Counted from the first letter of the stretch, positions 7,552 through 60,200 are shown. The stretch is 64,000 nt of DNA from a virus (IMGVR_UViG_3300045988_158809); one strand, 5' to 3'. Numbers and translations: made by a program. The notes: generated by a model from the letters alone, not told the origin.

Positions 7552-9096
7552 TTATTTTTGAACTATCTCATACTTAATCTTCGCCTTCTCGCCAAATGCA
7601 GCTTCCGAAGCCTGTTCCAGCAGGGGCTTGAAGTTTTCCTGAATATATGTGTAGAAGAATGCGGTAGGCACTTTAATCGTGACTGTACCGCAGCCCGTTC
7701 CGCCGTAATCGAGAAAGCGTAGCCAGGTGTTATATTCCGTCACGGTGCAGTTGTTCTGAATCACGTCCATGAAGATTTGCCATGCCTGGAGTTCCTTTTC
7801 CGTAGGCTGCGGGGTGGGGGATGCTTCCTTCTCCTCCTGCTGCCCTTTCTGTTCCGGTGGTTCCGGGTGAGCTTCTGGCGTGCGGCTGGTGATGAAGTTC
7901 TTCAGCGAGGTGATGACGTATGCCTTTACTGAGCGCGGCTTGTATCGCTTCACCATATCGCCCAGTTCGAGCACATATTTGCGGAAGTCGTTCACCAGCT
8001 CGTCGGGAAGCATATCCGACAGGCCTTTCACGTCGGTATCGGTCAGCTTGTATTCGGTGCGAAGGAGCGTCCATGCGTCGGCAGGCTGGTTGATGCGCTT
8101 GCGCTGCTGACGGAGTTCTTCGCCCAGTCCTGAAAGCTTTATCTGGAACTGCAGGTTTTCGGGGTTTCCCCGCTTTGCGCCATTCTTGTATAGCGGCTTG
8201 TAATCAAAAGTAAAGTCCACGAGGTTGTATTCAGAAAGTTCGTCCAGATCTTCCTTTATCGGGTCGAGCACAGTGGAACAGAAACGTGAAAATTTGGGGT
8301 AAATGTCCTTATCCACCTTCACCTTGTTTCCGTTCTTGTCAGTTTCGGTCACTTCCTCTATCAGTCCGAGGTACTTTTTAAGCTCTACAAGGTTGACTGA
8401 TTTACTGCCTATATCCTTCCATCGGGTGAGGTAGATGTAGATGGAAGGGGTGCGCTTGCGCCGGCATATACGGGTGATGTGGCGAAGATGGTTCATGTAT
8501 CCCAGTCCGTTTCCGAGGTCGCAAAGGTATCTCAGGGTATTAAGCGACATCTGGACTTCCACATAGTTTTCGCGCCGTGTGGTGCTTTTCTTGTATTTGT
8601 ATGTGCCTCCGATTTTCTCTTTTTCGGGAATACTGATTTCGGTGAACACATTTGCGAACACGCGCCTTAGCTGACCTGTTTCGGCATCCCGGCGTATGTA
8701 AGTGACGGACATGTTTTTCAGATTCCCGCACGTTTCCTGAAGGATATGATACGCGTCCGGCTTTACACCTATCGATGCGGTATCTACGCGCAGAGTGACT
8801 ATCTTGTTTTCGGTCTGTTTATTGTCTTTCGACTTATCCAGGCACTCCGCAAGGTCGTTTTCTTCTGGCATTCCGAGTTCAGGGAAAAGTACGAGCTGAC
8901 GCCCGGCATTTCCTTTTTTCAGGTATTGGTTGAACTGGTCCTGCAGGGAGTTCATGAGTTCTATCATGATGCTTCGCTCCGTGAGGGTGAAGTCGCCTCC
9001 TATCGTGGCGTAAAGATACGGCTGCTTGATAAATTCACAGTCTTTCAGCTCGCTTACAAGCTGGCTTTTCGGCAGAATATCTTTCTGTTTTTTCAT
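7552..9096 (-). CDS. Replication initiator (Rep_3-like N-terminus) with a DnaA-domain-I-like C-terminus
   Basis: The N-terminus FIKQPYLYATIGGDFTLTERSIMIELMNSLQ is plasmid-Rep-like. The C-terminus WQIFMDVIQ...YNTWLRFLDYGG..VTIKVPTAFFYTYIQENFKPLLEQA follows the DnaA N-terminal domain pattern. The gene sits next to the 22-bp iterons. Confidence 0.7.
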   Translation of the reverse strand: MKKQKDILPKSQLVSELKDCEFIKQPYLYATIGGDFTLTERSIMIELMNSLQDQFNQYLKKGNAGRQLVLFPELGMPEENDLAECLDKSKDNKQTENKIVTLRVDTASIGVKPDAYHILQETCGNLKNMSVTYIRRDAETGQLRRVFANVFTEISIPEKEKIGGTYKYKKSTTRRENYVEVQMSLNTLRYLCDLGNGLGYMNHLRHITRICRRKRTPSIYIYLTRWKDIGSKSVNLVELKKYLGLIEEVTETDKNGNKVKVDKDIYPKFSRFCSTVLDPIKEDLDELSEYNLVDFTFDYKPLYKNGAKRGNPENLQFQIKLSGLGEELRQQRKRINQPADAWTLLRTEYKLTDTDVKGLSDMLPDELVNDFRKYVLELGDMVKRYKPRSVKAYVITSLKNFITSRTPEAHPEPPEQKGQQEEKEASPTPQPTEKELQAWQIFMDVIQNNCTVTEYNTWLRFLDYGGTGCGTVTIKVPTAFFYTYIQENFKPLLEQASEAAFGEKAKIKYEIVQK

Positions 9097-12662: not shown

Positions 12663-13518
12663 ATGAATTTGACAGAGAAAATAGAGTATTCAATTAATCT
12701 ATTGAAAAAGAGTGAGAAAATGGCTCTTAAAATAGACCCTGAAAACGGCTTTTATTTGGCGTTTTCGGGTGGGAAAGACTCACAGGTATTATACCATTTA
12801 GCCGTAATGGGGGGGGGTGAAATTTAAAGCCCACATGAACCTTACAAGCGTAGATCCACCGGAGGTTATCAGGTTCGTAAAACAGCATTATCCTGATGTG
12901 GAACTGATAAAGCCGAAAATGAGTATCTATGATATGGCGAAGAAGAAAGGCTGTCTTCCTACTCAGAAAGTCAGATGGTGCTGTGAGGAATTTAAGGAAA
13001 TGTCTGGGGCCGGCAAGGTTACGTTAATCGGAATAAGACGAGAGGAAAGTGCAAGAAGATCGAAGCGTAATGAGGTAGAAATGAATAATTATAAATTCAG
13101 CGGAAGCTTCGGTCAGTGGAGCGAACATCGCGAGAATATGGTGACTTGCGTGGGAGGAAAAGATAAGATAATTGTCAGTCCGATACTCTACTGGACGAGC
13201 CGCGACGTTTGGGAGTTTCTTAATTCAAACTACATACCTCATTGCAGTCTTTACGATAAAGGGTATAAAAGAATAGGTTGCATACTCTGTCCAATGTCAA
13301 ATTATAAACAAAAGATTAGAGAGATAAGAGATTATCCGCATGTTAAAAGAAATTGGATAAAAGCTATAGAGTGGATGATGGAAAATAAATGGACTGAAAA
13401 ACGTTTAACGGAAGATGCGGAAATGGCTTTCAACTGGTGGATAAGCGGGAAATCTTTCAAACAGTTTTATGCGGATGAATATCTGCAACAGAAGATAGAT
13501 TTTGAGAACGTAAAATGA
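12663..13518 (+). pseudogene. PAPS-reductase-family PP-loop ATPase, interrupted by a frameshift in a G9 tract
   Basis: ATG 12663 gives ...FYLAFSGGKDSQVLYHLAVMGGGEI*. A run of 9 G lies at 12809-12817. Downstream frame 12817..13518 continues with KFKAHMNLTSVDPPEV...RWCCEEFK...GCILCP. Removing one G fuses the two frames. Confidence 0.75.
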
Positions 13519-24924: not shown

Positions 24925-25422
24925 ATGAATTTAACCAGACCTTACAAGACCTGCCGCGTATGCGGATGCACCAAGCCGAAAGAGGATTTCGTGGAAGGAA
25001 GGAAAGTATGTCTCTCTTGCTTCTCCGAATACAATAAGCAGCTCTACAGAAAAAGACATGCAGACCGTTCGGATGGAGTAAGATACAGCAAGGAATCCCG
25101 ACAGATAGTGGAATACCGTAACGGGCTACAGCGGAAATACTGGAATCCGCAGATGATAGCCGATTTCAGGAAATTGTTTCCCGTCACTACGAATGAAGAG
25201 CTTGCTTCTTTGTTCTGTGTGTCGAAAAGAACAATCAACCGTAAGGCTACGGAACTGGGGTTGAGAAAAGATGCGGAGTGGATGCGGAAGATGAGTCGTC
25301 ACAACCTGTTTTTCGCATCGGTGAAGAATCGCTTAAACGGTTATTCACAACTGGTAAAGGCCCGTAAGGCACTGGAAATAAAGTATAACAATCCGAATTT
25401 TACAAGAATAGACAGAGTATGA
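24925..25422 (+). CDS. zinc-ribbon plus HTH protein (tandem paralog 2)
   Basis: CRVCGC..CLSCFSEY, then FPVTTNEELASLFCVSKRTINRKATELGLRKD. Confidence 0.55.
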   Translation: MNLTRPYKTCRVCGCTKPKEDFVEGRKVCLSCFSEYNKQLYRKRHADRSDGVRYSKESRQIVEYRNGLQRKYWNPQMIADFRKLFPVTTNEELASLFCVSKRTINRKATELGLRKDAEWMRKMSRHNLFFASVKNRLNGYSQLVKARKALEIKYNNPNFTRIDRV

Positions 25423-26201
25423 ATATAGAACTGAATACAATATATAACGAGGACTGTATGGAAGGTATGAAGCGTATTCCTGACGGATCGGTGGATTGCA
25501 TTATTTGTGATTTGCCGTATGGAGTATTGAATAGAGGAAATGAACATGCGCAGTGGGACTGTCCTTTACCTATGGATCAACTTTGGGCTGAATATAAAAG
25601 AGTAACAAAGGACAATGCAGCTATAATTCTTTTTGCTCAAGGAATGTTTACTGCAGATTTAATGGTTAGCAACAGGAACATGTGGAGATATAATCTGATA
25701 TGGGATAAAATGGGTAAAACGGGATTTTTGAACGCCAACAGAATGCCTCTCCGACAGCATGAAGATATATGTGTATTCTATAATTCTTTGCCGGTGTATA
25801 ATCCACAAATGGAGAAATGTGAATTGCATAAAAGAAATCATGGACGTGGAAATCTTAAATCGCCTGTAACAAATAGTTGTTATGGTAAACATATAGAAGT
25901 AAAAACTATCGAAAGTGATGAAAAATTCCCTACTTCTATTATAAGTATATCAAAGGAACATAAAATAGGGCATTTTTTTCACCCCACCCAGAAACCCGTT
26001 TCCCTCCTGAAATACCTCGTCCTCACCTACTCTAACAAAGGCGACACAATTCTTGACAACTGTATTGGAAGTGGCACAACAGCCTTAGCTTGCATAGATA
26101 CTGGGCGCAACTTCATCGGATTCGAGAAAGAAAAGAAATATTTCGACATAGCCATGAAGCGTATCGCTCAAATGAGACAACAACCAAAACTTGATTTTTA
26201 A
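25419..26201 (+). CDS. DNA methyltransferase (N6A/N4C, beta class)
   Basis: DLPY motif (CIICDLPYGV) precedes FHPTQKPVSLLKYLVLTYSNKGDTILDNCIGSGTTALAC, which is the motif IV-before-motif I order of the ParB-less N6_N4 MTase family. Confidence 0.85.
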   Translation: MNIELNTIYNEDCMEGMKRIPDGSVDCIICDLPYGVLNRGNEHAQWDCPLPMDQLWAEYKRVTKDNAAIILFAQGMFTADLMVSNRNMWRYNLIWDKMGKTGFLNANRMPLRQHEDICVFYNSLPVYNPQMEKCELHKRNHGRGNLKSPVTNSCYGKHIEVKTIESDEKFPTSIISISKEHKIGHFFHPTQKPVSLLKYLVLTYSNKGDTILDNCIGSGTTALACIDTGRNFIGFEKEKKYFDIAMKRIAQMRQQPKLDF

Positions 26202-27529: not shown

Positions 27530-28074
27530 TGTACAGATTAGACAATCTAATAGAACAGTGGGCGACGGAGTTCAAGCTTGTCTCCCACAATCCCGAAGGC
27601 GGTGCAGACGGCAAACGGTTTTTCCGCATCGACTCCATATCGGACCTGAAACCCGTTATTCTGAGTCTGACGAAAATCAAGACTCCCGTAGTGGCATACA
27701 GCACGCAGATAGAAGGCTCGTCCAACGAGGGCGGAAACGGAACGTACTATCTGGCGAACATCTACATACTCGTTCCGCAGGAGAAAACCACAGCCCCCTA
27801 CCGTGAGGACTTGAACGCGGCAAACGCCAAATATCTGGCAGTGGAGATAGCGGAAAAGCTGAAGGCATGGCTCATGGAGAAGAAGAAGAACGAAAAGCAA
27901 TACCCGGAACTGAGAGGTCTAAACCTGAAAACGGCAGCTATGGGATCATTCCCCAAACATTTCAACAACTGGTGGCCGCTCCATATCCAAATGGATTATC
28001 TGAACGCCGATTACGTGTGCGTAAATCCCGAAGACTATCACCAGGACGAAGCCGGGGAGGGCGCACAGTCATGA
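27529..28074 (+). CDS. conserved phage protein 'A', copy 1 (paralog of 56092..56598)
   Basis: Shares the blocks SHNPEGGA.GKRFFRID, KTP.V.Y.TQI, AVEIAEKL and CVNPEDY with copy 2, which lies just upstream of the tape measure gene. Confidence 0.65.
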   Translation: MYRLDNLIEQWATEFKLVSHNPEGGADGKRFFRIDSISDLKPVILSLTKIKTPVVAYSTQIEGSSNEGGNGTYYLANIYILVPQEKTTAPYREDLNAANAKYLAVEIAEKLKAWLMEKKKNEKQYPELRGLNLKTAAMGSFPKHFNNWWPLHIQMDYLNADYVCVNPEDYHQDEAGEGAQS

Positions 28075-28559
28075 AACGTCTGCCTCTTATAGTAGCCGCC
28101 TCCCTCCTCTGTGCTACCCTCTTCTTCGGATGCCGCACACAGCAGACCGGCACCACACGCATCATCACCCTTCGCGGCGACACTGTGATACGCAACCGTG
28201 TGGTACCCGTGGTATCGCCGGCAGACTCGGCCAGGATAAAAGCCCTCATGCGGTGCGACGAGAACGGACGTGTCCTCCTTGACTGGTACGAGCAGGAATG
28301 CAGCAAGAACGCGCGTCTGAAGTTCAAACTCGATTCGCTTGGCAAGCTGATGATAGACTTCGACGTTCTCCGCGATACGGTGTACATTCCCGTGGCAGAC
28401 ACAACCGTGAACCGCAGCAGCAGCGTGGAAGAAGTCAATACGGTGGAAGTGGAGCGAAAAATGCGCTGGTGGGAGAAATATCTTATAGGAGTCGGGATAT
28501 TGGCGCATGGTGTGTTAATCGGCTTCGGAATCTTTAAACTAAGGAAATTGTGGATTTGA
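28071..28559 (+). CDS. lipoprotein with a C-terminal TM helix (unimolecular-spanin-like architecture)
   Basis: Internal ATG at 28071 (ATGA overlap). Lipobox LFFGC, and C-terminal TM helix YLIGVGILAHGVLIGFGIF followed by KLRKLWI. Confidence 0.55.
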   Translation: MKRLPLIVAASLLCATLFFGCRTQQTGTTRIITLRGDTVIRNRVVPVVSPADSARIKALMRCDENGRVLLDWYEQECSKNARLKFKLDSLGKLMIDFDVLRDTVYIPVADTTVNRSSSVEEVNTVEVERKMRWWEKYLIGVGILAHGVLIGFGIFKLRKLWI

Positions 28560-28876
28560 TGAAAAAGACGAAAGTATATATCAGTCTGCCTATCTCAGGG
28601 CACGACATCGAGCAGGTGAAGAAACGCGCGGAGGAAGTGAAGCTGCGAATAGAGAACGACAGAGTGGAAGCCATTACCCCCTTCGACGTGTGCGACGAGA
28701 AAGACCGTCCATACTCCTACTACATGGGGCGCGACATCGAAGCCCTGATAGAGTGCGACGGCATCTATGTGTGCAACGGTTGGCACTCGTCGAAAGGCTG
28801 TCAGGCGGAAGTCCATGTAGCTGTGGTGTACGACAAGAAAATGGTGTTTGAGAGTAAAAGTAAGGTGTTTGTATGA
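28559..28876 (+). CDS. DUF4406-like protein (nucleoside 2-deoxyribosyltransferase-like fold)
   Basis: KVYISLPISGH...YYMGRDIEALIECDGIYVCNGWHSSKGCQAEVHVA matches the DUF4406 pattern as I remember it. Confidence 0.65.
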   Translation: MKKTKVYISLPISGHDIEQVKKRAEEVKLRIENDRVEAITPFDVCDEKDRPYSYYMGRDIEALIECDGIYVCNGWHSSKGCQAEVHVAVVYDKKMVFESKSKVFV

Positions 28877-29796
28877 AAATAGGTTTGCTTTCGGTTGACA
28901 GCAGTTATCCCAACCTCGCGCTTATGAAGATTTCCGCATATCATAAACAACGCGGCGATGAAGTGGAATGGTACTCTCCTTTCGAGCATTACGATAAGGT
29001 TTATGCAGCAAAGGTATTCAGTTTCACTCCCGATTACGGATATTACATCAATGCTGACGAGGTGGAGCGTGGCGGAACAGGCTACGACATACAGAAATGT
29101 CTGCCAAAGGAAATTGAAACCGTGCAGCCGGACTACAGCATATGTGGCTCGATAGAAAAGAATGTGGCATACGGATTTCTCACCCGCGGCTGTCCGAACC
29201 GCTGTAAATGGTGCGTCGTTCCTAAGAAAGAAGGTAAGATAGCTCCTTATATGGACGTGGAAGAAATAGCTATTGACGGCCGGAACAATCTTATTCTCAT
29301 GGATAACAACGTGCTGGCAAGCGATTACGGTATCAGTCAGATAGAAAAGATAGTGAAGCTGAAATATCGGGTAGATTTCAATCAGGGACTTGATGCCCGT
29401 CTGGTCACTCCCGAAATAGCCAAACTCCTTTCAAAGGTGAAATGGATAAAGCGAATCCGTTTCGGTTGCGACACTCTCGGACAGATAGACGATTGTGAAA
29501 AAGCCATATCACTCCTGGAGAGAAACGGTTACAAAGGTGAATACTTTTTCTACTGCATTCTTCTGGACGATTTCGACGAAGCTTTCCGGCGCGTAAACCA
29601 CTGGAAGCAGAGAGGCGGACGGTTCTATCCGCATTGCCAGCCATACCGCGACGTGAACAATCCTCACCAGATGATACCGCAATGGCAAAAGGATATGGCA
29701 AGCTGGGCAGACAAGAAGTGGATATTCAAGTCGTGCGAGTTTAAGGACTATGAGCCACGAAAAGGATTTAAGTGTAGTGCGTATTTTGAAAAGTAA
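28873..29796 (+). CDS. radical SAM enzyme with a B12-binding-like N-terminal domain
   Basis: CPNRCKWC (CxxxCxxC) preceded by GFLTRG. The N-terminus MKIGLLSVDSSYPNLALMKISAYHKQRGDEV resembles the class B radical SAM fold. Confidence 0.8.
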   Translation: MKIGLLSVDSSYPNLALMKISAYHKQRGDEVEWYSPFEHYDKVYAAKVFSFTPDYGYYINADEVERGGTGYDIQKCLPKEIETVQPDYSICGSIEKNVAYGFLTRGCPNRCKWCVVPKKEGKIAPYMDVEEIAIDGRNNLILMDNNVLASDYGISQIEKIVKLKYRVDFNQGLDARLVTPEIAKLLSKVKWIKRIRFGCDTLGQIDDCEKAISLLERNGYKGEYFFYCILLDDFDEAFRRVNHWKQRGGRFYPHCQPYRDVNNPHQMIPQWQKDMASWADKKWIFKSCEFKDYEPRKGFKCSAYFEK

Positions 29797-29893
29797 GCTT
29801 TTATAAACTACAACTCCCCCCACCCTGATTGCAGGACTTGAACTCCTCGGTTTCCGTCGCAGCCTGATAGACGATTTCAAGGGAGAGATTACA

Positions 29894-30010
29894 GTGATAA
29901 CCGACGGAGTTATCACTACAGCAGATAGAGATTTCCTGAAAAGGAATCCTGAATATGTGGAATTTTATCCGACGCAGGAATTAGATACAGTAAATCATGA
30001 GAACAAATGA
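29894..30010 (+). CDS. possible 38-aa peptide ORF (GTG start)
   Basis: The frame is open over 29807-30010 with no ATG. GTG 29894 is preceded by GGGAGAG at 6 nt. The stop overlaps the start of the ACP-like gene by 14 nt. Confidence 0.3.
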   Translation: MITDGVITTADRDFLKRNPEYVEFYPTQELDTVNHENK

Positions 30011-30533
30011 AATCAGAAAAGCGGTGTTTCGCATTATCGAGAAATATACCGATATAAAAATAAAATCGGGCACCTTACTACGCGATGATGCCGGACTTGA
30101 CAGCATGGAGCAGTTGGAAATATGCAATGATATAGAATCCGAGTTTAATTTAATCATTGAAGACAGTGAACTGTTTACCCCGAAAGTGGAGAATGCCACA
30201 GCAGGAGAAATCGTGGAAATGGTAATAGAGAAACTGAAAGAACAGGACGCGCAGCAGAAGGAAGCACCTGAAGAAGAAACGGAGGAGCAGACGGAAGAAA
30301 CATCCGATAAAAATAATGAAACAGATACATCCGGTTTAAGACGTAGGCTCGCCTTAATGATAAACGCCCGTTCTATCCTGTATTTTAATAATATGATTAC
30401 AGAATCAGAGAACGACCGCATACACTCAAAGATAATGCAGTTTGCCGAAAAGAGTAAAATTCAAATATCGCGTGCGCAAATAGATTCAGTGAATTTTACA
30501 TACGACGATAATGCTAAAGACGAGGAGGAATAA
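29997..30533 (+). CDS. acyl-carrier-protein-like domain, acidic linker and repeat domain 'X'
   Basis: LRDDAGLDSMEQLEICNDIESEFNLIIEDSELF...AGEIVEMV fits the ACP/PP-binding helix II pattern, with a DS(M) serine. The C-terminal LRRRLALMINARSILYFNNMITESENDRI... recurs in the next genes. Confidence 0.65.
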   Translation: MRTNEIRKAVFRIIEKYTDIKIKSGTLLRDDAGLDSMEQLEICNDIESEFNLIIEDSELFTPKVENATAGEIVEMVIEKLKEQDAQQKEAPEEETEEQTEETSDKNNETDTSGLRRRLALMINARSILYFNNMITESENDRIHSKIMQFAEKSKIQISRAQIDSVNFTYDDNAKDEEE

Positions 30534-30536
30534 ATT

Positions 30537-30953
30537 ATGTTTACACAATCATGTTTTATAAGGAAAAACTCTCCGGAGATTAGAGAAAAGCTTAAAGAGC
30601 TTGGATATCATGTGTACGATTTAGACATGAATAAGGATTCTCCGGCAGATTGGTGTACGGTTATTGAATCTGAAGCTGATTATGTAGGTATATGGTGTAA
30701 AGAACCTGCTAACAAAGAAAAGTTCCTTGATTGCGGAACTAATGAAGAGTTATTTCTTGCACTTGCAGCACTCAGGGATGATACCGATGCTTACCAGTGG
30801 TTTGTAAACGAAATCGGGAATGTTTGGTGGAGAACAGAGTTTGATTCTTTCCTGGAATGTTTCATTGAATCAAACGAAGATAGCGAATTAAAGTATGAAG
30901 ATTTTCATAAAGCAACACCTGAAGAACTTATCAAACATTTCAAACATGGATAA
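30537..30953 (+). CDS. hypothetical conserved phage protein
   Basis: GAGGAGGA lies upstream. The block CGTNEELFLALAALRDDTDAYQWF looks like a widespread phage family of unknown function. Ends in KHFKHG*. Confidence 0.55.
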   Translation: MFTQSCFIRKNSPEIREKLKELGYHVYDLDMNKDSPADWCTVIESEADYVGIWCKEPANKEKFLDCGTNEELFLALAALRDDTDAYQWFVNEIGNVWWRTEFDSFLECFIESNEDSELKYEDFHKATPEELIKHFKHG

Positions 30954-31188
30954 AGAGAATAAAGATTTAAGATGCAAACTTGCTTTAATGATAAATACTC
31001 GATTTTTTTTGTATGAAAATAAAATGATTACTGAAGCTGAGAATGAACGTATTTGTAAAAGAATAAACAAGTTCTCAGAGAAACATAATGTCAAATTGTC
31101 CATAGGACAGATACACGGTGTTTCTTTCGTTTATGACGATAATACTAAATTTGAAGATGTGTTAACCAAACATTTTGGACATGGATAA
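30946..31188 (+). CDS. stand-alone 'X' domain protein
   Basis: ATG at 30946. LRCKLALMINTRFFLYENKMITEAENERICKRINKFSEKHNVKLSIGQIHGVSFVYDDN parallels the C-terminus of the ACP-like protein. Ends in KHFGHG*. Confidence 0.55.
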   Translation: MDKENKDLRCKLALMINTRFFLYENKMITEAENERICKRINKFSEKHNVKLSIGQIHGVSFVYDDNTKFEDVLTKHFGHG

Positions 31189-31831
31189 AGAATACAAACG
31201 TGGTTTGCTTCGGAAGTTTTCTCCATACACGGAAGTAGATGAATTCTCAGACGAAAATGATGCTTTCGACTCTATAGTGTTAGGCTTATATCTATCATCA
31301 AGAACAAGACCTAAGCCGGAACAGGTAACAGAACAACAACTTGAAAAATTCTCAGAACAAATGAATGAAATGTCAGAAAAATACGGTAAAAGACCGATAG
31401 AAGAGGTACGGGAAATGTACCGTGGTCATATCAGAAGGATTTTAATTGGGTTAAATAATTTATATAATAATGGAGTTCTTTCAGATTCTGATTATCAGCA
31501 GGCTAAAGAAAGATTGAAAAAGGTAGCCGATGAATACAATATTGATAATTTTGAGAATCTGCCATACATAGAGGAAACACAAGATTTGATTCAAAAAGAG
31601 AATGAAGAAAAGACAGAAAGACTTGCAGAAATATTGAATGACTGCCTTGAAGAACACGGGCTCGCTCGTCTCTCTTCTGCTTCTCCCTCTCCCACCCTAC
31701 CCGTTTATGTTTTGGAGTCCAAACCGGAATTTCCAGCAATGATTAATTGCAGTTTTAAAGACGGGAAAGCAAAACGTTGTGAGTGCAGAGCAAAAGAAAG
31801 AATGACGAAGAAACAGAATAAAAGATATTAA
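31181..31831 (+). CDS. hypothetical protein with a weaker third 'X'-like segment
   Basis: The ATG at 31181 lies inside the repeated junction CATGGATAAAGA. Contains IRRILIGLNNLYNNGVLSDSDYQQAKERLKKVADEY. Confidence 0.5.
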   Translation: MDKEYKRGLLRKFSPYTEVDEFSDENDAFDSIVLGLYLSSRTRPKPEQVTEQQLEKFSEQMNEMSEKYGKRPIEEVREMYRGHIRRILIGLNNLYNNGVLSDSDYQQAKERLKKVADEYNIDNFENLPYIEETQDLIQKENEEKTERLAEILNDCLEEHGLARLSSASPSPTLPVYVLESKPEFPAMINCSFKDGKAKRCECRAKERMTKKQNKRY

Positions 31832-31832
31832 T

Positions 31833-32117
31833 ATGACAACAAACATTACAATCATAGCAGTAACCTTTCTCCTATGCTTCACATTCCTTGTGGCATACTT
31901 CGGCTACCTCATAATGAAAACTGAGATTTATAAAGTCCGCAGGTTGCTACGCATTATTGCCAGGCTAAGGAAGGAACTCTTAGAACTTAGAAAATTCTCT
32001 GATGAGACAATATATGAATGGGGTAAAGATATGGATAAAAGAAATAGTCAGTACGACGAACTTCTCGATAAATTTTATCAGTATGAATCCGCAAAACAAA
32101 ACAACAATGAACTTTAA
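31833..32117 (+). CDS. membrane-anchored coiled-coil protein
   Basis: N-terminal TM helix ITIIAVTFLLCFTFLVAYFGYLI. Confidence 0.5.
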   Translation: MTTNITIIAVTFLLCFTFLVAYFGYLIMKTEIYKVRRLLRIIARLRKELLELRKFSDETIYEWGKDMDKRNSQYDELLDKFYQYESAKQNNNEL

Positions 32118-32526
32118 ATCACTACCCACAACCAGCGAACAGCAGTCGCAAACGCTACTTAAAGCCGGACTGAATCCAAAGACTGCCGACTGTTACATAG
32201 AAGAAGACGGCCACACGATAATCGCGAGGGATGATTACAATTTGGAAATAGCATTAGATTATCGGAACCTCACTCCGTCGTGGAGTCTTTCCCGATTGTT
32301 GGATATGATGCCGTTTGAAGTTCCCGATCCTAAATCGGGATATAAACCACATCACCCTGAATTAATAAAGCGTCGTGAGGACTATGTTCTTTCGATAAGA
32401 AGATCTACAGCCGACTGTCTTGTAGGAACACATATCGAGGACAATCCGATAGAATGTGCAGTTTCTATGATAGGCTGGCTGATACGGAAAAATCATTTCA
32501 ATAAAGAATATCTAAAAAAGAAATAA
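32107..32526 (+). CDS. hypothetical protein; member of the 3-member paralog family
   Basis: Taken from ORF 32002..32526. I prefer the ATG at 32107. Contains LLKAGLNPKTADCY, TPSWSLSRLLDMMP and MIGWLIRKNHFNKEYL. Confidence 0.5.
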   Translation: MNFKSLPTTSEQQSQTLLKAGLNPKTADCYIEEDGHTIIARDDYNLEIALDYRNLTPSWSLSRLLDMMPFEVPDPKSGYKPHHPELIKRREDYVLSIRRSTADCLVGTHIEDNPIECAVSMIGWLIRKNHFNKEYLKKK

Positions 32527-32528
32527 CC

Positions 32529-32867
32529 ATGCAAATACTCAAACAAATCTACCCTACCGCCCGTGTGCCGCACCGTTGCGACCTTTGTGGCGGTACTATC
32601 AATCCAGGAGAAACATACAAAAGGACTACCGTTTCGGAAGACGGCAGAGTGTCCGATTCTGTTACGCACATACATTGCAGCAATCTTATAGACAGGCTCG
32701 ATATGGACGAATACTATGAGGGTGTTTTGATTGAGGATTACGAATGTATCGTTCAGGACTATGTTTCGGACAATCATCGTGATGATCCGCAATGGGATAT
32801 AAAGGATTTGCCGAAATGTACAAGAATGATTTATGAAGAACTTTGTAAGGAGGAAAGTAAGGTATGA
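32529..32867 (+). CDS. hypothetical Cys/His-containing protein
   Basis: ORF on the track. Contains HRCDLCGG...HIHC. Confidence 0.5.
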   Translation: MQILKQIYPTARVPHRCDLCGGTINPGETYKRTTVSEDGRVSDSVTHIHCSNLIDRLDMDEYYEGVLIEDYECIVQDYVSDNHRDDPQWDIKDLPKCTRMIYEELCKEESKV

Positions 32868-33130
32868 AAATAGCAGGATGTGTGTTCCGCCAGTCAGAAA
32901 TTCAAATAAACAACGAGAACACTTTTGCAGCACGTTACAGGAAGAGAACTATATACGTTTCGTCTGAACATGGATTCGGAAAAGCAAAAGAGCCAGGAAA
33001 GACTCGATTTTATCAGGAAGTATATGGTGATGATGGTATTTACGATATGGAATGTTATAATGATTTCCACAATATCGAGGAAGCAATTATAGATACGTTA
33101 GAAGGTGCAGGTTTAGCAAAGAACAATTAA
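32864..33130 (+). CDS. hypothetical protein (88 aa)
   Basis: TAAGGAGGA lies upstream. ATGA overlap with the previous gene. Confidence 0.5.
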   Translation: MKIAGCVFRQSEIQINNENTFAARYRKRTIYVSSEHGFGKAKEPGKTRFYQEVYGDDGIYDMECYNDFHNIEEAIIDTLEGAGLAKNN

Positions 33131-33143
33131 AAACGAAATAATT

Positions 33144-33563
33144 ATGCGAAGAATCATACAAATAGATGAATCAGAATATAATCAGCTTGTAGATAAGGCA
33201 AACCTTAACGAAAAGCAGATTGAAGAAAAGGCCGTAGCGCTTTATGAGGAGAAAGGAGTAGCTAACGTAGATATAACCGTGAAAACGGACAGCGATTGTT
33301 ATTCCTCCAGATACTTTAAATGCGGTAGCTTTGTGTGGTATAAGGATGAACGTTTCTTCATTTCTGAAAAGTTGAGAAACAATCTTAGAAAGTTTATTAC
33401 AGAACTGGTGCAGTATAAAGTAAACCAGGATTACGAAAAGCCTGAAAGGCTTGCAGAGGATTATGAACGCAAGTTGAATTTCCTTAAAAATGTGCGATAC
33501 ATTTTTTACGCTGTAGCTTTATCCGGCTGGGCCGCATTTGTAACATTATTATGTATGAAGTAA
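33144..33563 (+). CDS. hypothetical protein with a C-terminal TM helix
   Basis: The C-terminus is IFYAVALSGWAAFVTLLCM. Confidence 0.5.
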   Translation: MRRIIQIDESEYNQLVDKANLNEKQIEEKAVALYEEKGVANVDITVKTDSDCYSSRYFKCGSFVWYKDERFFISEKLRNNLRKFITELVQYKVNQDYEKPERLAEDYERKLNFLKNVRYIFYAVALSGWAAFVTLLCMK

Positions 33564-33579
33564 ATTGAAACAGTAGAAT

Positions 33580-34140
33580 ATGAAACAGATAAACGAAATT
33601 GACTTAAACTCTTACCGTGACAGAGTTTATCAGAATGCGGTAAACCATGGGTGGCATGAAGAAGAGAAAAGTATTGAGCATTGGCTTTGCATGGTAATGT
33701 CCGAACTGATGGAAGCGGTGGAAGCAGACAGGTTGGGGAAATATGCAGACCGAAACCAGTTTGAGAATTATATGAATCTGGTAGAGCGTTCAAACGACGA
33801 ATTTGTATATGCTTTCAAATATGGAATAAAAGACTCGGTTGAAGATGAGCTTGCAGATGCTTGTATCAGGCTGTTTGATATGGCTGGAGTATATAATGCT
33901 GATTTTAATCTTCTCACTCCTACCGAATATGAAACTTCAAGATATTCAAAATTAACTTTCACGGAGTCTGTTTATAAGATGATTGAAAATCTTTGCCTTT
34001 TCCAATTTAATATAATAGGACACCTGGACGAAATCTTTACCTTCTGCCGTTCTCGCAATATAGACATTTTCTGGTTCATCGATCAGAAGATGAAATACAA
34101 CGAATTCCGGCCATTTAAACACGGTGGAAAGAAATATTAA
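33580..34140 (+). CDS. MazG-like (all-alpha) nucleoside triphosphate pyrophosphohydrolase
   Basis: HWLCMVMSELMEAVEADR ... SVEDELADACIRLFDMAG fits the EExxE/D metal-binding helices of the phage MazG/dimeric-dUTPase-like fold. Confidence 0.6.
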   Translation: MKQINEIDLNSYRDRVYQNAVNHGWHEEEKSIEHWLCMVMSELMEAVEADRLGKYADRNQFENYMNLVERSNDEFVYAFKYGIKDSVEDELADACIRLFDMAGVYNADFNLLTPTEYETSRYSKLTFTESVYKMIENLCLFQFNIIGHLDEIFTFCRSRNIDIFWFIDQKMKYNEFRPFKHGGKKY

Positions 34141-34212
34141 TCAGTTAAAACATGTAAAGCAATCCGGTTTGATTTTTGTCAGACCGGAACCCGCTTTACA
34201 AGTCATTCTGGG

Positions 34213-34278
34213 AGCGAAAAATTTTCATTGCAATCACAGAAAATTTTTATTGCATTCGCAGAAAATTTTCATTGCAAT
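34213..34278 (+). repeat. Three tandem 22-bp repeats with nested palindromes
   Basis: Units at 34213-34234, 34235-34256 and 34257-34278. Consensus CAGAAAATTTTCATTGCAAT, containing GAAAATTTTC and ATTGCAAT. They lie upstream of the Dam-type gene. Confidence 0.85.
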
Positions 34279-34373
34279 GCCGGATTTACGTTTTCGCAAC
34301 CTCATTTTTACGGCGTAAAATAAACGCTTTATTTTGACATTTAGAAACAATTTGTTTACATATATTTGCAATC

Positions 34374-34859
34374 ATGAACACGACATTTGAAAAGTCAGCA
34401 AACAGTACCGACGAATGGTACACCCCGAAAGAAATACTCGATGAGCTGGGCCCTTTCGACCTCGACCCATGTGCGCCGGTAGTTCCACTGTGGCCAACGG
34501 CTGCCACCATGTATAATAAGAACGACGACGGACTTTCTAAGCCGTGGTTTGGCCGTGTATGGCTCAACCCTCCCTACTCCCGTCCGCTCATCGAGCAGTT
34601 TATCAACCGCATGGCGGAACACGGAAACGGCATCGCGCTTCTATTCAACCGGTGCGACAGCAAGATGTTTCAGGATGTGATTTTCAAGAAAGCATCCGCC
34701 ATGAAGTTTTTGCGCCACAGAATAAAGTTCTACAGGTCAGATGGTTGTAGGGGGGGGTCGCCCGGATGTGGCAGTATTTTGATAGCTTTTGGCGATGAGA
34801 ATGCAAATGTCATTCGTGATTGTAAGATAGAAGGTAAATTTGTATCACTTAAAGATTAA
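34374..34859 (+). CDS. phage-type DNA N6-adenine methyltransferase (Dam family)
   Basis: DEWYTPKEILDELGPFDLDPCA plus VWLNPPYS. Contains an in-frame G8 tract at about 34751-34758. Confidence 0.8.
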   Translation: MNTTFEKSANSTDEWYTPKEILDELGPFDLDPCAPVVPLWPTAATMYNKNDDGLSKPWFGRVWLNPPYSRPLIEQFINRMAEHGNGIALLFNRCDSKMFQDVIFKKASAMKFLRHRIKFYRSDGCRGGSPGCGSILIAFGDENANVIRDCKIEGKFVSLKD

Positions 34860-34864
34860 TCGTT

Positions 34865-35551
34865 ATGGATAAGGAAGAAGAAGAAAGACTGGAATACAAA
34901 CAGTATATGCAGGTGGTTGACGCTTGTCGTGAATTATTCAAAAAGAAATTGCAGGATTACGGTGCTGCATGGCGCATTCTACGCCCGGCGTCCGTGACCG
35001 ACCAGATATATATCAAAGTGGCTCGCATCCGTAGCCTGCAGCTCTCCGGCGAGAACCTGGTGGGCGATTCGATAGAAAGTGAGTTTATCGGTATCGTGAA
35101 TTATGGTATTATCGGACTGATACAGTTTGAAGATGGGTTTTCTGAAAAGAATGATACGCCAATCGATTTGGCGGAGAAACTTTACGATAGTCACTTTGCA
35201 GAGTGCTTTAACGTAATGAAAAAGAAAAACCATGATTACGGCGAAGCATGGAGGAACATGCGTGTGGAGACTATCACAGATTTAATTTTGACAAAGGTGT
35301 TCCGAACAAAGCAGATTGAGGACCATGACGGGCATACTATCGCATCGGAGGGAATCCCTGCCAACTACATCGACATGGTGAATTATGCTATCTTTGCGTT
35401 GTGCCTGCTTCAGGAACGTCCGGTTTCAAGTACAGATAAATTAGATGGTGAGGAAATGCCAGATTTCTCTTTAATGCCAATTCCTCCAAGTGGGAAATAT
35501 TATGCGGCAGAACGTAATCCTGAAGTAAATCCTTCCACTGAAACCAAGTAA
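34865..35551 (+). CDS. tandem DUF1599 (nucleotide modification associated domain 1, Nmad1) protein
   Basis: Two copies of the signature: KLQDYGAAWRILR..TDQIYIKVARI...IVNYGIIGL and KNHDYGEAWRNMR..TDLILTKVFR...MVNYAIFAL. Confidence 0.7.
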   Translation: MDKEEEERLEYKQYMQVVDACRELFKKKLQDYGAAWRILRPASVTDQIYIKVARIRSLQLSGENLVGDSIESEFIGIVNYGIIGLIQFEDGFSEKNDTPIDLAEKLYDSHFAECFNVMKKKNHDYGEAWRNMRVETITDLILTKVFRTKQIEDHDGHTIASEGIPANYIDMVNYAIFALCLLQERPVSSTDKLDGEEMPDFSLMPIPPSGKYYAAERNPEVNPSTETK

Positions 35552-37533: not shown

Positions 37534-38388
37534 ATGGCAAAAATTATTTCAGTGGTCAACTTCAAAGGGGGAGTGGCCAAATCAACCACAGCTTTTAATC
37601 TTGCGGCTGCACTTTGGATGTGCGGCAAACGTGTTTTGATAGTAGATGCAGATCCGCAGTATGAACTTACTACCCGTATCGGGTTTAATGAGCGCGATGC
37701 GGAGACTATGTATGAATGGATGCTGTCGGAGGGTACGAAGAATGAACTTCCGGCTCCTATATATAACAGGTATGCCGGAAACGATGATTTCTGTTTTATC
37801 CCATCAAGTTCAAAGGTCTCAAACATCGAGCAGGCTCTTGTCACTCAGCCCAACCGCTTCAAGTCTCCGTATATGATATTGAGAAATCTGCTGCATAAGT
37901 ATTGCGAAGATTTCGATTATATCTTCCTGGACTGTCCACCGTCGCCGGGATTTATGAATAATCTGGCTCTTATCGCGAGTGATGAAATTATCGTGCCTGT
38001 GGAATGTGCCGGTGAGTCAATCGACGGACTTATCAAACTTGATATGACTATTCAGGACGTGAAGGAACAGGTGAATCCTGATTTGACGATAAAAGGCTAC
38101 CTGCTTACCAAGTACGACGACCGTACAAAAATCACACGAAAAATCAGAGAGGAAATTTCGGAGGAGGGGTTACTCCTGAATACGAAAATCCGCTCGTCTA
38201 TCAAGTTTAAGGAGGCGGGTATGTTCTATAAGAACATCTTTGAGTATGATCCGAACGGAAACGGCGCCGAGGATTATATGTCGCTGGCAGAGGAACTGTT
38301 TGATGTGAAAAGGCCGGACAACTGGAAGACTGTTTCGGCTGAGTGTTGGGAAAAGACTATTGGTTCGCAAACCGAGGACGAAGAATAA
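37534..38388 (+). CDS. parA: ParA/Soj-family partition ATPase
   Basis: MAKIISVVNFKGGVAKSTTAFNLAAAL...RVLIVDADPQ shows the deviant Walker A motif, with no N-terminal HTH extension. Confidence 0.9.
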   Translation: MAKIISVVNFKGGVAKSTTAFNLAAALWMCGKRVLIVDADPQYELTTRIGFNERDAETMYEWMLSEGTKNELPAPIYNRYAGNDDFCFIPSSSKVSNIEQALVTQPNRFKSPYMILRNLLHKYCEDFDYIFLDCPPSPGFMNNLALIASDEIIVPVECAGESIDGLIKLDMTIQDVKEQVNPDLTIKGYLLTKYDDRTKITRKIREEISEEGLLLNTKIRSSIKFKEAGMFYKNIFEYDPNGNGAEDYMSLAEELFDVKRPDNWKTVSAECWEKTIGSQTEDEE

Positions 38389-55256: not shown

Positions 55257-56066
55257 ATGGGGGCTTTAATAGTTGCTTTTGTTATAGCTATTTTTATTGG
55301 AACATTTATTTATGCATGGAAAGAAGAAAAGGTTGAAGGAGAGGTTTCTTCCGAAGAGTTGTTGGAGAGAATAAAATGTTCTGACATTAAAAGAATAGAT
55401 TTCAGGATAAGAGGTATTGCTTTTTTATCCGAAGAAAGCAGGCAAATGGTGTTTTCCTTGATGCCGACAGATACTTTATATTTAAGGCGAGAACCTTGGA
55501 ATCCTGTAGATTCGAATGCTGTGGCGGTTTTCAGAGGTGATGAAAAGATTGGATATGTAGAAAAACCTATAAACAAGGTTATTCTTAAATATATATCAAG
55601 TGATTTTATGTATAATTGCTGTTTTGCATATAAGGAAAGGAATGATAAGGATTATATGGAATATTATTGTTCGTTTTTTATTGAATCAAAAGGGAGCAAT
55701 GATAAATTGCCGTCAGGTGTTCTAAATCCTACAATGGATAATATTTTCACTAATCCAAAAATAGATTTTCCTTTTGGTAAAGAAAATTATGATTTTTATG
55801 CCGTTCCTGGAGAATGGATTTTCAGTGAATACCAATCTTATGGAAAGAAAAGCAAACTTGAGGTTAAAGAAGATCCTGATACAAGAGAATTATATGATGC
55901 AAATAAAGATTTAATGTCTGATTTTTTAAATAATTTATATCTTTTGAACGAGGAAACTACAACTGTAAATGACGTTATTAGAAAATATAGAGAATTATTT
56001 AAAAAAAGATATATGGAAGGTTGGATTAACAAGTATTTAGCTACTCATGATATATTTATAGATTAA
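55257..56066 (+). CDS. HIRAN-domain protein with an N-terminal TM helix
   Basis: TM helix GALIVAFVIAIFIGTFIYAW, then IRGIAFLS...LYLRREPWNPVDSNAVAVFRGDEKIGYVEK (HIRAN signature). Confidence 0.65.
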   Translation: MGALIVAFVIAIFIGTFIYAWKEEKVEGEVSSEELLERIKCSDIKRIDFRIRGIAFLSEESRQMVFSLMPTDTLYLRREPWNPVDSNAVAVFRGDEKIGYVEKPINKVILKYISSDFMYNCCFAYKERNDKDYMEYYCSFFIESKGSNDKLPSGVLNPTMDNIFTNPKIDFPFGKENYDFYAVPGEWIFSEYQSYGKKSKLEVKEDPDTRELYDANKDLMSDFLNNLYLLNEETTTVNDVIRKYRELFKKRYMEGWINKYLATHDIFID

Positions 56067-57200: not shown

Positions 57201-60200
57201 ATGGCAAAAAGCGACAGCAACAAGGTTGCACATATAGAACTTCTACTTAATGGTAATAAGGCACGAAATGTGCTTGAAGGATTACGTCGCGGTGCGGAAT
57301 CCTTGAAAAAAGAACTGGAGGAACTGAAAGCGACAGGCCTTCCTGATGATGACAAGCGTGTCAAACAGTTGACCGCTGCATTAAAAGATGCCACGAGTGC
57401 GGTAAACGCGGCAGAACGTAATTTGCTTGACCTTGACAGTATTGTGAAAAATCTTAGCAGTCAAAGTCTGAAAAAACTTGAAGCTGCCGCAAGACAGCTA
57501 AAGAAACAAATGTCGCTTACGGCTGGAGATGACCCGAAGTTAAATGAACTCATAAAGCAGTATCAGACTATCAATGAACAGATTGATAATATCACTAATC
57601 GGTGGAAAAAGCAAAACACAGAACTTAATCAGACTGAGAAGGAGTTGCTTGATATCAAGAAGATAATAGACAGTCTTGATACGCAGAGCGTTGATGTTCT
57701 GGAAAAAGCCAAAAGTCAGATAAAGAAAGAATACACGAGTGTTTCGCCAACCGATCCTAAAATGAAGGAACTGGCGGCACAGTATAAAATCATTGATGAA
57801 AGAATAAGTGATATAAACAACGGGCTAAAGCGGCAAAACACAGAACTTGACAGTTCTGAAAAAGAATTGCTGGACATTAAGAAGATTGTAGATACTCTTG
57901 ATACTCAAAGCCTGAAAATCTTGAATCAGGCAAAGACTCAAATAGAAAAAGACCTGAACGAGGCAATACCCGGTTCAGAACAAATGGCTGAATTGTCAGA
58001 GCAGTATAAGGTTATAAAAAACAGAATATCCGAAGTTTCTGATACCTGGAAAAAACAGGAAGAGGTAATTGAAGATGTAGAAGAAGAATTGCTTGATGTC
58101 AATAAGATTCTGAAAGAACTTAACAAGCAGGATTTGGCTACTCTTACCAAAGCCATGAAGCAGGTAAGGGATGAAATGGAACATACGGCTGCCAATTCTC
58201 CTAAAATGAAAGAATTGGCCAAGCTGTATCAAGCCCTTGATGACCAGGTATCGAAAATAACAGGTTCATGGAAGCGTCAGGACGGCGCTATTACGTCTGT
58301 GGTGCGCAGACTTGCCGCGTATGTGTCGGTGTATGGCGGATTTAATCTGGTTACAGACCGTTTGCGACAGATAGTTACTGGGAATCTGGAATTTTCCGAT
58401 TCCCTTGCAGATATTCAGAAAACTACCGGACTTTCTGCCGACGGTGTAGCTGAATTAAGTTACCAGATAAGCAAGATTGATACCCGTACAAGTGTTCAGG
58501 CTCTTCATGAACTTGCATACGAAGCCGGAAAGCTTGGTATAGGTAGCGAAGGTGTGGAAGGTGTGGCAGGATTCGTTCGTGCAGCAGATAAGATTTCAGT
58601 TGCTTTGGGAGAAGAACTTGGAGGTTCGGAAGCGATTAAGGAACTGATGAAAATGAATGATGTGTTAGGCCTTACACAGAAAATGGGTATTGAAAAATCC
58701 CTTATGGCCACAGGTTCTGCAATCAATCTTTTAGGACAGACTTCTACTGCTAATGCAAGTTATATAGCTGATTTCGCAAAGAGACTTTCAGGTATTGCCA
58801 CACAGGCCCATATAACAATGGATGAAATTCTGGCTTTTGGTGCGGCAGCAGACGCAACAGGTCAGGAGGTGGAAGTGGCGGCTACTGCAATGAACTTGTT
58901 TATCACACAGTTACAGACACACTATAAGACAGTTTCTCAGGCAGCCGGAGTAAATGAAGAAACAATAAAGAATCTTCTTGAAATGGGTAAGACTACCGAA
59001 GCTGTCATGATAGTTCTTAGAGGATTGTCAGAGAAAGGCGGTCTTTCACAGTTAGGGCCAATTATGAAAGATTTAGGTTCGGAAGGTGCGCGTATGTCTG
59101 GTGTGCTTGCCAACTTCGCAAGTAATCTTGATATGGTGGAACAGGCTTTAATGGTCTCAAAAAAAGGTTTTACAGAAGCTACTTCAGTAACCAACGAATA
59201 TAACATCAAGAATGAAAATGCGGCGGCCATAATGGAGAAGATGGCTAATTCATGGGAGAAGATGTTTGTCAATTCCCAGAATACCGGACTTGTGAAAGAT
59301 ATGGCCGACAATTTCTATGAGCTTTCAAAATCCTTGCAGCAAAGCAGCGTGTGGATGAACTCTATATATGCTATATTATGGGGATTACAGAAACTCATAT
59401 CCACACTCATTGCTTCCCTTCCTGTTTTGATAACGCTGTTTACTTTGAAGGGGCTTGTGGTGGGTATCGCTCGTCTTTCAGCCTTTATAAAAGAAGCCCG
59501 TGCGGCTGCTACTGCAATGACCGTGCTTAATTCAGCCATGAAAAGCAATGTCATAATTTCTGTTATCAGTCTTGTGGCCGGTCTTGCATTCAGTCTTGTA
59601 AATCTAAAACGTGAACTATCCGATGTAGAAAAATCTGCAAACGACCTTAGTGACAGCTTTCGCAAATTCAGTAAGGACAGTAACGCCGCAGGAATAGAAG
59701 CAAATACCCTTTTTGGACGATTGAAAAACCTGAAAGCAGGTACTGATGAACGTCGTGATTTGCTCATTAAGATTAATGAACTATATGGAAAATACATTCC
59801 CCATCTGCTTTCCGAAAAATCCACTCTTGAAGAAATTAAGGAAGCCCAGGATGCGGTAAACGCTTCGCTGGCACAATCCATAGCCTACCGTTCAAAGGAG
59901 TCGGCCATACAGCGAGTTGGTGAACAATATACAAGCAAGCTGGCCGACCAGATTAGTGATTTGCAGAATGTGTATAGTGCGGCTGGAGTAGGGAACTTAG
60001 GAGATATTGATGCACAGAAGTTAGCAGAACTTACGGCAAAGTATTATGATGCAGGGCTGAAATGGCGCTCGGCGCAAAAACAGATCTGGCAGGACATGTA
60101 CGGGCAGAAAGGTATGTCACACAGTCTGGTTACTGAGAACAGTGTGTTTATCAATCGAATGGATGAAGCGCAGCGTGCTGTAAATAATTATGTGGCCCAT

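Follow-up and report, generated by a model that had tools for sequence, protein, structure and literature searches.

Within 64,000 nucleotides of viral DNA (IMGVR_UViG_3300045988_158809; the window, by which this whole stretch is meant), part of a gut Bacteroidales phage of about 95-105 kb whose closest relatives are viral contigs of 95-106 kb, six genes between positions 28559 and 35551 encode a DUF4406 protein, a radical SAM (rSAM) enzyme, an acyl carrier protein (ACP)-like fusion protein, a MazG-like protein, a phage Dam-type methyltransferase and a protein of two DUF1599/Nmad1 domains. A first-pass annotation had proposed that these genes are tightly coupled and form an island for one DNA hypermodification pathway. 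The comparison with related and unrelated phages presented here makes it more probable that the region is a mosaic early/accessory module of single-gene cassettes, gained, lost and replaced independently of each other, and not a biosynthetic gene cluster. The features of the region, including two more distant genes which the proposal had drawn in, are the following open reading frames (ORFs; lengths in amino acids, aa) and non-coding elements.

12817-13518, plus strand: PAPS-reductase-like (PP-loop) gene, 15 kb upstream of the proposed island (PF01507)
25419-26201, plus strand: orphan N4/N6 DNA methyltransferase, DPPY-type (PF01555, PADLOC MTase_II)
28071-28559, plus strand: lipoprotein-like ORF (ORF call)
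28559-28876, plus strand: DUF4406 protein (PF14359, phrog_355)
28873-29796, plus strand: stand-alone rSAM protein of 307 aa, PHROG 9298 (phrog_9298)
29828-29983, plus strand: start-less remnant of a 74-aa ORF (tblastn to the sibling genome L094)
29997-30533, plus strand: ACP-like fusion protein of 178 aa (PF00550, Foldseek)
30537-33563, plus strand: eight small ORFs, nearly all without a family match (ORF call)
30895-31188, plus strand: small ORF, paralogue of the C-terminal domain of the ACP-like protein (BLASTP)
33580-34140, plus strand: MazG-like protein of 186 aa (PHROGs)
34218-34283, no strand: three tandem 22-nt repeats, AAAATTTTCATTGCAATCACAG-like, partly palindromic (in the gap upstream of Dam)
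34312-34328, no strand: GC hairpin with a T-run (downstream of the 22-nt repeats)
34374-34859, plus strand: phage Dam-type N6-adenine methyltransferase (PF05869, NPPY)
34865-35551, plus strand: tandem DUF1599/Nmad1 protein of 228 aa (PF07659)

The six family assignments of the first-pass annotation hold at these coordinates in Pfam, PHROGs and NCBIfam searches, with two caveats, namely that the rSAM protein scores below the Pfam cutoff and that the MazG-like assignment rests on PHROGs and conserved acidic motifs. The distant PAPS-reductase-like gene and the second orphan methyltransferase are likewise real by Pfam. None of the ORFs had to be reassigned to an unrelated function such as an anaerobic ribonucleotide reductase (RNR) activase or a member of a lipid ACP operon, an outcome which the annotation had named as refuting, and its general theme of nucleotide and DNA methylation genes was right.

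The gene set was followed through eight genomes of the phage lineage (the window, L092, L093, L094/L110, L095/L111, L167, L169 and L170), in which the genes of the window were scored by tblastn. Gene order is conserved within the lineage, and the ACP-like, MazG-like and tandem Nmad1 genes are each present in all eight genomes (8/8). DUF4406 is found in seven of the eight, Dam in six (none in L169 and L170), rSAM in five and the N4/N6 methyltransferase in four. The combinations seen include genomes with DUF4406 and Dam and no rSAM, genomes with DUF4406 and neither rSAM nor Dam, and genomes with none of the three; DUF4406 is kept without rSAM in L110 and L170.

The turnover can be followed to the nucleotide in the sibling L094/L110 (IMGVR_UViG_3300045988_166558, 95,275 bp), which matches the window with 98% identity as far as position 28874, at the end of DUF4406. 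Similarity is then lost over exactly the rSAM ORF and is back at 29797 (blastn), inside the truncated ORF, and the rSAM slot of the sibling holds unrelated ORFs of 148, 74 and 100 aa. The remnant at 29828-29983 retains 86.5% identity over 52 aa (tblastn) to the intact 74-aa ORF of L094 (1039-1263) and, as read from these alignments, is the recombination junction, the apparent scar of an exchange of the rSAM cassette. Among the siblings, between zero and three or more genes separate rSAM from the ACP-like gene. The slot of the N4/N6 methyltransferase is, by the same kind of comparison, evidently a further single-gene cassette swap, as L093 (6437-7321), L167 (4794-5678) and L169 (5813-6697) carry there a 294-aa tyrosine-integrase-like gene (Phage_integrase) with the flanking ORFs unchanged.

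Outside the lineage, 122 rSAM loci of other phages were taken with flanks of 8-10 kb and all their ORFs searched with hidden Markov models (HMMs). An ACP domain was found at 0/122 of these foreign loci and Nmad1 also at 0/122, and DUF4406 and Dam occur at 13 loci each and a MazG-like gene at 36. Approached from the other members of the set, rSAM lies within 10 kb of DUF4406 at 1 of 24 foreign DUF4406 loci and the other genes at 0/24, and 14 distant Nmad1 loci contain none of the other genes. In unrelated phage types (LoVEphage-like and Mu-like phages, phiCT453B, Methanomassiliicoccales viruses and a Marinitoga virus) rSAM stands on its own. What stands next to rSAM differs by phage type, being a C5 methyltransferase in LoVEphage-like phages, Gam in Mu-like phages, small ORFans and Dam in PV4-TP1, and RusA and ORFans in phiCT453B. 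The claim of one hypermodification pathway thus fails the comparative test that had been named for it, co-occurrence being conserved neither in relatives nor across independent lineages, and for this reason the one-pathway reading is unsupported.

Nor are the six genes tightly coupled as had been described, since only three junctions of the region are tight and two gaps and eight ORFs interrupt the set. The tight junctions are those between the lipoprotein-like ORF and DUF4406 (TGATG), between DUF4406 and rSAM (ATGA, 28873-28876) and between Dam and Nmad1 (a 5-nt gap). A 200-bp gap 3' of rSAM contains the gene remnant, and eight unrelated, mostly ORFan ORFs separate the ACP-like gene from the MazG-like gene; PHROG scans of ten ORFan neighbours yielded families of unknown function only. 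The 233-bp gap upstream of Dam contains the three 22-nt repeats and the hairpin, which suggest a separate transcription unit, and a TAnnTTTG-like motif stands just 5' of the Dam ATG, features by which this gap is probably an operator or promoter region. Within the proposed island, the GC content steps from 0.49 (28-30 kb) to 0.37 (30-32 kb).

The earlier remark that TGT/DpdA, QueC/D/E and thymidylate-synthase-like enzymes are missing from the 64 kb was borne out when about 90 ORFs of the window were scanned with Pfam, and in the same scans no nucleotide kinase, aGPT-Pplase or glycosyltransferase and no phosphopantetheinyl transferase (PPTase), synthase or acyl-ligase domain was found. NCBIfam likewise gave no match to the TGT/DpdA and Que enzymes. 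The thymidine hypermodifications of phages M6, ViI and PaMx11 are encoded in conserved clusters with a dUMP hydroxymethylase, the 5-HMUDK kinase, aGPT-Pplase and pyridoxal phosphate (PLP) enzymes, and the one characterised DNA-modifying phage rSAM, the isomerase M6 gp53, which resembles spore-photoproduct lyase (SPL), belongs to such a conserved 5-hydroxymethyldeoxyuridine (5-hmdU) cluster (PMC8989533). The present region shares with these clusters a phage rSAM near nucleotide-metabolism genes, whereas none of the partner genes is present in the 64 kb, the rSAM is of a methylthiotransferase- or class-B-like type and the gene set is not conserved.

Palindromic sites are strongly avoided in the window. 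GATC is observed 59 times against 223 expected (z=-15.5) and CTAG twice against 65, and of the 6-bp palindromes CAGCTG is seen 0 times (16 expected), CATATG once (15), GATATC 7 times (28) and GCATGC 0 times (8). Phages whose DNA is still open to type II restriction typically show such avoidance, unlike those protected by bulk base substitution, and by this indirect evidence the phage DNA appears to be exposed to ordinary restriction.

Several points weigh against a mosaic of independent cassettes or limit how far it reaches. Three of the eight lineage genomes were found via the ACP-like gene, and its occurrence in all eight is partly a matter of ascertainment. In this lineage rSAM always lies directly 3' of DUF4406 and never occurs without it, the two genes sharing the ATGA overlap, and across rSAM clusters a gene of the nucleoside 2-deoxyribosyltransferase (NDT) superfamily stands directly upstream in 5/54, which leaves room for a facultative two-gene partnership. 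The lineage-core ACP-like, MazG-like and tandem Nmad1 genes may be linked with one another, a connection with which their presence and absence is compatible. The hallmark-gene scan covers the 64-kb window, and some 31 kb of the phage genome lie outside it. As far as the sequence can indicate, nothing in the region specifically points to hypermodification, and the housekeeping roles of rSAM, DUF4406, Nmad1 and the ACP-like protein are ones that we infer.

The rSAM protein matches phrog_9298 over its full length (3e-123) and scores 24.8 bits against PF04055, under the gathering cutoff of 29.5. The evidence from the fold compensates for this sub-threshold score, as the AlphaFold2 (AF2) model, built on an alignment of 46 sequences down to 33% identity, has a mean predicted confidence (pLDDT) of 96.4 and every significant Foldseek match of the model is an rSAM enzyme. 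Its top neighbours in the PDB are MtaB, MiaB, RimO and MgmA (E 5e-8 to 2e-5; TM-score normalised to the query, TMq, 0.57-0.66). Like the methylthiotransferases MiaB, MtaB and RimO and the class-B cobalamin rSAM methylases (MgmA), the protein carries an N-terminal Rossmann/flavodoxin-like domain followed by the rSAM barrel with CX3CX2C, and its description as class-B-looking was reasonable in view of this domain order in the model. In contrast to those enzymes, it is devoid of auxiliary-cluster cysteines, of a TRAM domain and of Pfam B12-binding and NCBIfam matches, and its N-domain is shortened to about 70-95 aa. Across the 46 sequences, C107, C111 and C114 (CPNRCKWC) are the only invariant cysteines and no further near-invariant one was found, which argues for an rSAM enzyme without an auxiliary cluster. 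The N-domain is Rossmann-like but truncated, with a Foldseek match to MgmA and no match to PF02310 (B12-binding) at E<=0.01. No TRAM domain was detected in Pfam or NCBIfam, the protein ending at residue 307, whereas the methylthiotransferase targets are 417-451 aa long (TM-score normalised to the target, TMt, 0.42-0.47). NCBIfam has no model for rSAM, DUF4406, the MazG-like protein or Nmad1, and sequence searches of the PDB with these four proteins gave nothing significant.

An identity of this rSAM as anaerobic RNR activase, QueE or SPL was considered and dropped, as none of them has an NCBIfam or Pfam match; QueE is a remote structural match only (E 2.5e-3, TMq 0.36), and SPL is absent among the matches. 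Fusions of rSAM homologues with ParB_N, ERF or an ABC ATPase, inspected as possible Rosetta-stone proteins, look like read-through gene calls with early-gene neighbours and offer no functional clue. In the literature we found no functional study of the rSAM family, of DUF4406, of DUF1599/Nmad1 or of phage ACPs.

More than 8000 homologues of the rSAM protein were counted in one database, those from many Bacteroidales phage types being about 75% identical, and the family comprises 303 clusters at 50% identity (E<=1e-30). It is already annotated as 'radical SAM domain protein' in Bacteroides LoVEphage, Phocaeicola phage PV4-TP1 and Bacteroides phages BI-TP1 and BKO1-TP3, and also in Clostridium phage phiCT453B, Methanomassiliicoccales viruses and a Marinitoga virus; the hosts of these annotated viruses are all strict anaerobes. 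Genome matches fall into Bacteroidales and Clostridia, where the genes, as judged from a single-protein search, appear to sit in prophages. At the foreign rSAM loci (L001-L091, L136-L166), recurrent neighbours are a DUF551 protein (53 loci), an NAD-dependent epimerase/dehydratase (25), C5 methyltransferases (21), a ComF-like protein with a phosphoribosyltransferase motif (12) and a second small rSAM of 178 aa with CPNKCPMC (10).

The N-terminus of the ACP-like protein matches PF00550 (PP-binding) with 23.1 bits against a cutoff of 20.8. Residues 1-85 are predicted to adopt the four-helix ACP fold, with helix II beginning at S36, and superpose on solved ACPs in Foldseek with TMt 0.83-0.85 and an rmsd of 1.6-1.9 Å. 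In the DS motif, D35 is invariant and S36 is present in 16/17 relatives. The family consists of 42 proteins, all of this phage lineage, built of an ACP domain, an acidic linker and a swappable C-terminal domain, the N-domain being conserved and the C-termini exchanged, as in siblings with a different C-terminus of about 120 aa. The C-terminal domain of the protein here (30331-30533) is 55% identical over 64 aa to the nearby ORF at 30895-31188 (E=6e-22, BLASTP). The four-helix fold and the serine of DS(M/L) that opens helix II are shared with type II ACPs (PF00550) and with the phage 'ACP' family PHROG 4154, from which the present protein differs by the acidic-linker fusion to exchangeable domains, its restriction to a single phage lineage and the lack of a PPTase, synthase or ligase in the window.

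The DUF4406 protein is supported by PF14359 (2.2e-10, 41.2 bits against a cutoff of 22) and by phrog_355, the nucleoside 2-deoxyribosyltransferase family (5.6e-20). Its SxGxxxE motif reads 'SKGCQAE', and this motif we take to be the catalytic one of the NDT/DNPH1 families. The MazG-like protein matches the PHROG pyrophosphatase families phrog_9236 (1.2e-53) and phrog_3301 (3.7e-19), with a non-significant match to Pfam MazG-like (E=0.12) and weak profile matches to the PDB MazG-like entries 2q73 and 4qgp (E 0.16-0.28); it carries the motifs SELMEAVEAD ... EDELADACIRLFD, and its acidic residues E42, E45, D50, E90 and D100 are invariant. Dam matches PF05869 (7.8e-12, 45.6 bits against a cutoff of 28.1) and phrog_111 (3.6e-38), has 'WLNPPYS' in its translation and is called an orphan methyltransferase by PADLOC. 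The N4/N6 methyltransferase matches PF01555 (1.7e-31) and PADLOC MTase_II (8e-73). The PAPS-reductase-like gene matches PF01507 (1.7e-18), with the BREX type-4 component BrxP as best PADLOC model (3.7e-12) and DndC as a weak second, and genes of this family stand near rSAM again in PV4-TP1, in BKO1-TP3 and at 14 further loci. Among the genes of the window, PADLOC gave matches for the methyltransferases and the PAPS reductase only.

The tandem Nmad1 protein contains two domains of PF07659 (3.7e-55, 184.6 bits). That Nmad1 might be a divergent MazG-type all-alpha NTPase was tried and rejected (hhalign probability 0.3%). Elsewhere, Nmad1 is found in the contexts dUTPase-Nmad1-PolB-RecA and PolA-HNH-Nmad1 and beside a clamp loader, and Asgard wyrdviruses have a dUTPase-ThyX-Nmad1 block (10.1101/2021.07.29.453957), a context that by gene neighbourhood points to replication or dNTP supply and in no instance specifically to hypermodification. 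With the DUF1599/Nmad1 proteins of the Asgard wyrdviruses and of IMG/VR phages the protein shares the Pfam domain and a replication or dNTP-supply setting; unlike them, it is a tandem duplicate in one protein and is encoded 3' of Dam, not of a dUTPase or polymerase. Among isolated phages, only two Chryseobacterium jumbo phages of about 215 kb have a tandem Nmad1. In Chryseobacterium phage MA9V-2 (MA9V2_030; L171 5001-6410) the pair forms the N-terminus of a 469-aa protein adjoining the clamp loader, and the C-terminal 280 aa or so of this protein have no Pfam match.

In the mosaic reading, the stretch of 24-37 kb would be part of a long co-directional early/accessory operon, the parts of which most likely act separately. 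The Dam-type and N4/N6 orphan methyltransferases would methylate the phage DNA and thereby allow escape from host type II restriction, and by the family membership of these enzymes methylation is the only DNA modification for which the sequence offers direct support. The MazG-like protein, DUF4406, with its N-glycosidase/transferase fold, and the tandem Nmad1 may work on free nucleotides or nucleosides, be it to sanitise, salvage or supply dNTPs for replication, a role suggested by family and by the recurrent dUTPase/ThyX/polymerase neighbourhood of Nmad1. The rSAM enzyme would be autonomous and independent of its neighbours, with a single [4Fe-4S]/SAM site and an N-terminus like a degenerate cobalamin domain, its substrate probably being a nucleic acid or nucleotide in anaerobic hosts. 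The ACP-fold protein could serve as a lineage-specific module or adaptor with exchangeable C-termini, for which the phage has no dedicated partner enzyme; any phosphopantetheinylation of it would require the host AcpS.

A module of this kind resembles the 'nin-like' accessory early regions of temperate phages such as Phocaeicola phage PV4-TP1 and the Bacteroides phages BKO1-TP3 and LoVEphage, which are likewise co-directional early modules with rSAM (71% and 42% identical), phrog_111 Dam, PAPS reductase, pyrophosphatase, C5/N6 methyltransferases and ORFans. The phage of the window differs from these in its larger size (about 95 kb), the plasmid-type Rep and ParA, the lineage-specific ACP-fold fusion and the tandem Nmad1.

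That the six genes together, perhaps joined by the PAPS reductase, make up one pathway to a new hypermodified base, a carrier-tethered group being installed by radical chemistry, is highly improbable. The correctly identified families, the gene order conserved within the lineage and the designation of DUF1599 as a nucleotide-modification-associated domain by Pfam would fit such a pathway, and M6 gp53 sets the precedent of an rSAM that modifies phage DNA (PMC8989533), yet gp53 is SPL-like and encoded in a conserved 5-hmdU cluster, unlike the rSAM here, which is an exact single-ORF cassette. Siblings dispense with rSAM, Dam and DUF4406 individually, ACP and Nmad1 accompany rSAM at 0/122 foreign loci, the window scans revealed no PPTase, ligase, hydroxymethylase, kinase or transferase, and restriction sites are strongly avoided. 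A smaller, facultative module, in which rSAM and an NDT-fold protein, be it DUF4406 or a related one, would act together on a nucleoside or nucleotide and produce or degrade a modified nucleotide, for instance as a DNA precursor or to counter nucleotide-based host immunity, is less remote and still distinctly unlikely. Besides the ATGA overlap at 28873-28876 and the constant position of rSAM after DUF4406 in the lineage, it draws on other lineages with a different NDT-like protein of 143 aa (weak PF15891/PF05014 matches) 12-21 bp upstream of rSAM, and on L127, whose rSAM is only 38% identical, and L140, where DUF4406 is located 0.4-0.5 kb downstream of rSAM. An NDT-superfamily gene (DUF4406 or the 143-aa NDT-like gene) lies within 3 kb in 11 of 54 rSAM clusters at 95% identity, being directly adjacent in five; but phages commonly carry NDT-like accessory genes and the 11/54 is a raw count, uncorrected for background, the other 43 clusters have no such gene within 3 kb, 23/24 foreign DUF4406 loci are without rSAM within 10 kb, and L110 and L170 have DUF4406 alone of the pair.

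Other explanations concern the rSAM or the variable cassettes by themselves. We hold it very unlikely that the rSAM modifies RNA or tRNA as an enzyme of the methylthiotransferase or methylase type, retunes host or phage translation and is unrelated to DNA. The closest structures are indeed the tRNA and ribosomal enzymes MtaB, MiaB and RimO and the class-B methylase MgmA, a 'CxVPxKEG' motif following the cluster motif resembles that of MiaB, and the RNA ligase RtcB is frequent in the same early regions; the protein is, however, about 140 aa shorter than methylthiotransferases, lacks the TRAM RNA-binding domain and conserved auxiliary-cluster cysteines in the N-domain, and has no NCBIfam match. 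A shade less likely again is a role of the variable cassettes (rSAM, the acidic ACP-like protein and small ORFans) in anti-defence or host takeover rather than as metabolic enzymes for phage DNA. Their hypervariable, cassette-like turnover between near-identical siblings, the location in an early operon adjoining orphan methyltransferases and the highly acidic nature of the ACP-like protein with its exchangeable C-terminal domains would suit this; the cassettes have no PADLOC match, PADLOC modelling defence and not anti-defence, and the rSAM, at about 75% identity between many phage types, is unusually conserved, while rapid evolution is the rule among anti-defence proteins. Unlikely as well is the proposal that the members of PHROG 9298 are new self-contained nucleic-acid- or nucleotide-modifying enzymes of about 300 aa, with one Fe-S cluster and a degenerate B12-like N-domain, assisted in some lineages perhaps by an NDT-fold protein, which would install or remove an undescribed DNA, RNA or nucleotide modification in the phage-host arms race.

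A carrier-protein/rSAM route to a new DNA base would, if true, be a new class of phage DNA chemistry, a prospect that is small given the mosaic assembly. The single-gene turnover of methyltransferase, rSAM and NDT-like cassettes in gut Bacteroidales phages matters for the prediction of restriction escape and for phage engineering. The novelty that remains lies in an abundant, highly conserved rSAM family which is confined to viruses of strict anaerobes and for which annotations exist in LoVEphage and several isolates, and the natural sibling phages with and without rSAM provide a comparison pair for a direct test of its function.

As to the element itself, no DNA-level match came up when 27-37 kb was compared by megablast with phage and plasmid collections, and tblastn of a 472-aa ORF of the structural region against phages also had no match. 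The window encodes a plasmid-type initiator (Rep3_C and DnaA_N), a ParA ATPase, a PriCT-2 primase and an 1852-aa tape-measure protein (the four lie at 7552-9096, minus strand, and at 37534-38388, 57201-62759 and 62876-63802, plus strand, given here by coordinate and not in the order of the names), and the element is a large Bacteroidales phage, possibly a phage-plasmid. A HIRAN-domain protein is encoded at 55257-56066, and the 63 remaining ORFs of the window include a T4 endoV-like pyrimidine-dimer glycosylase (Pyr_excise), an Rv2179c-like 3'-5' exonuclease and an HU-HIG protein.

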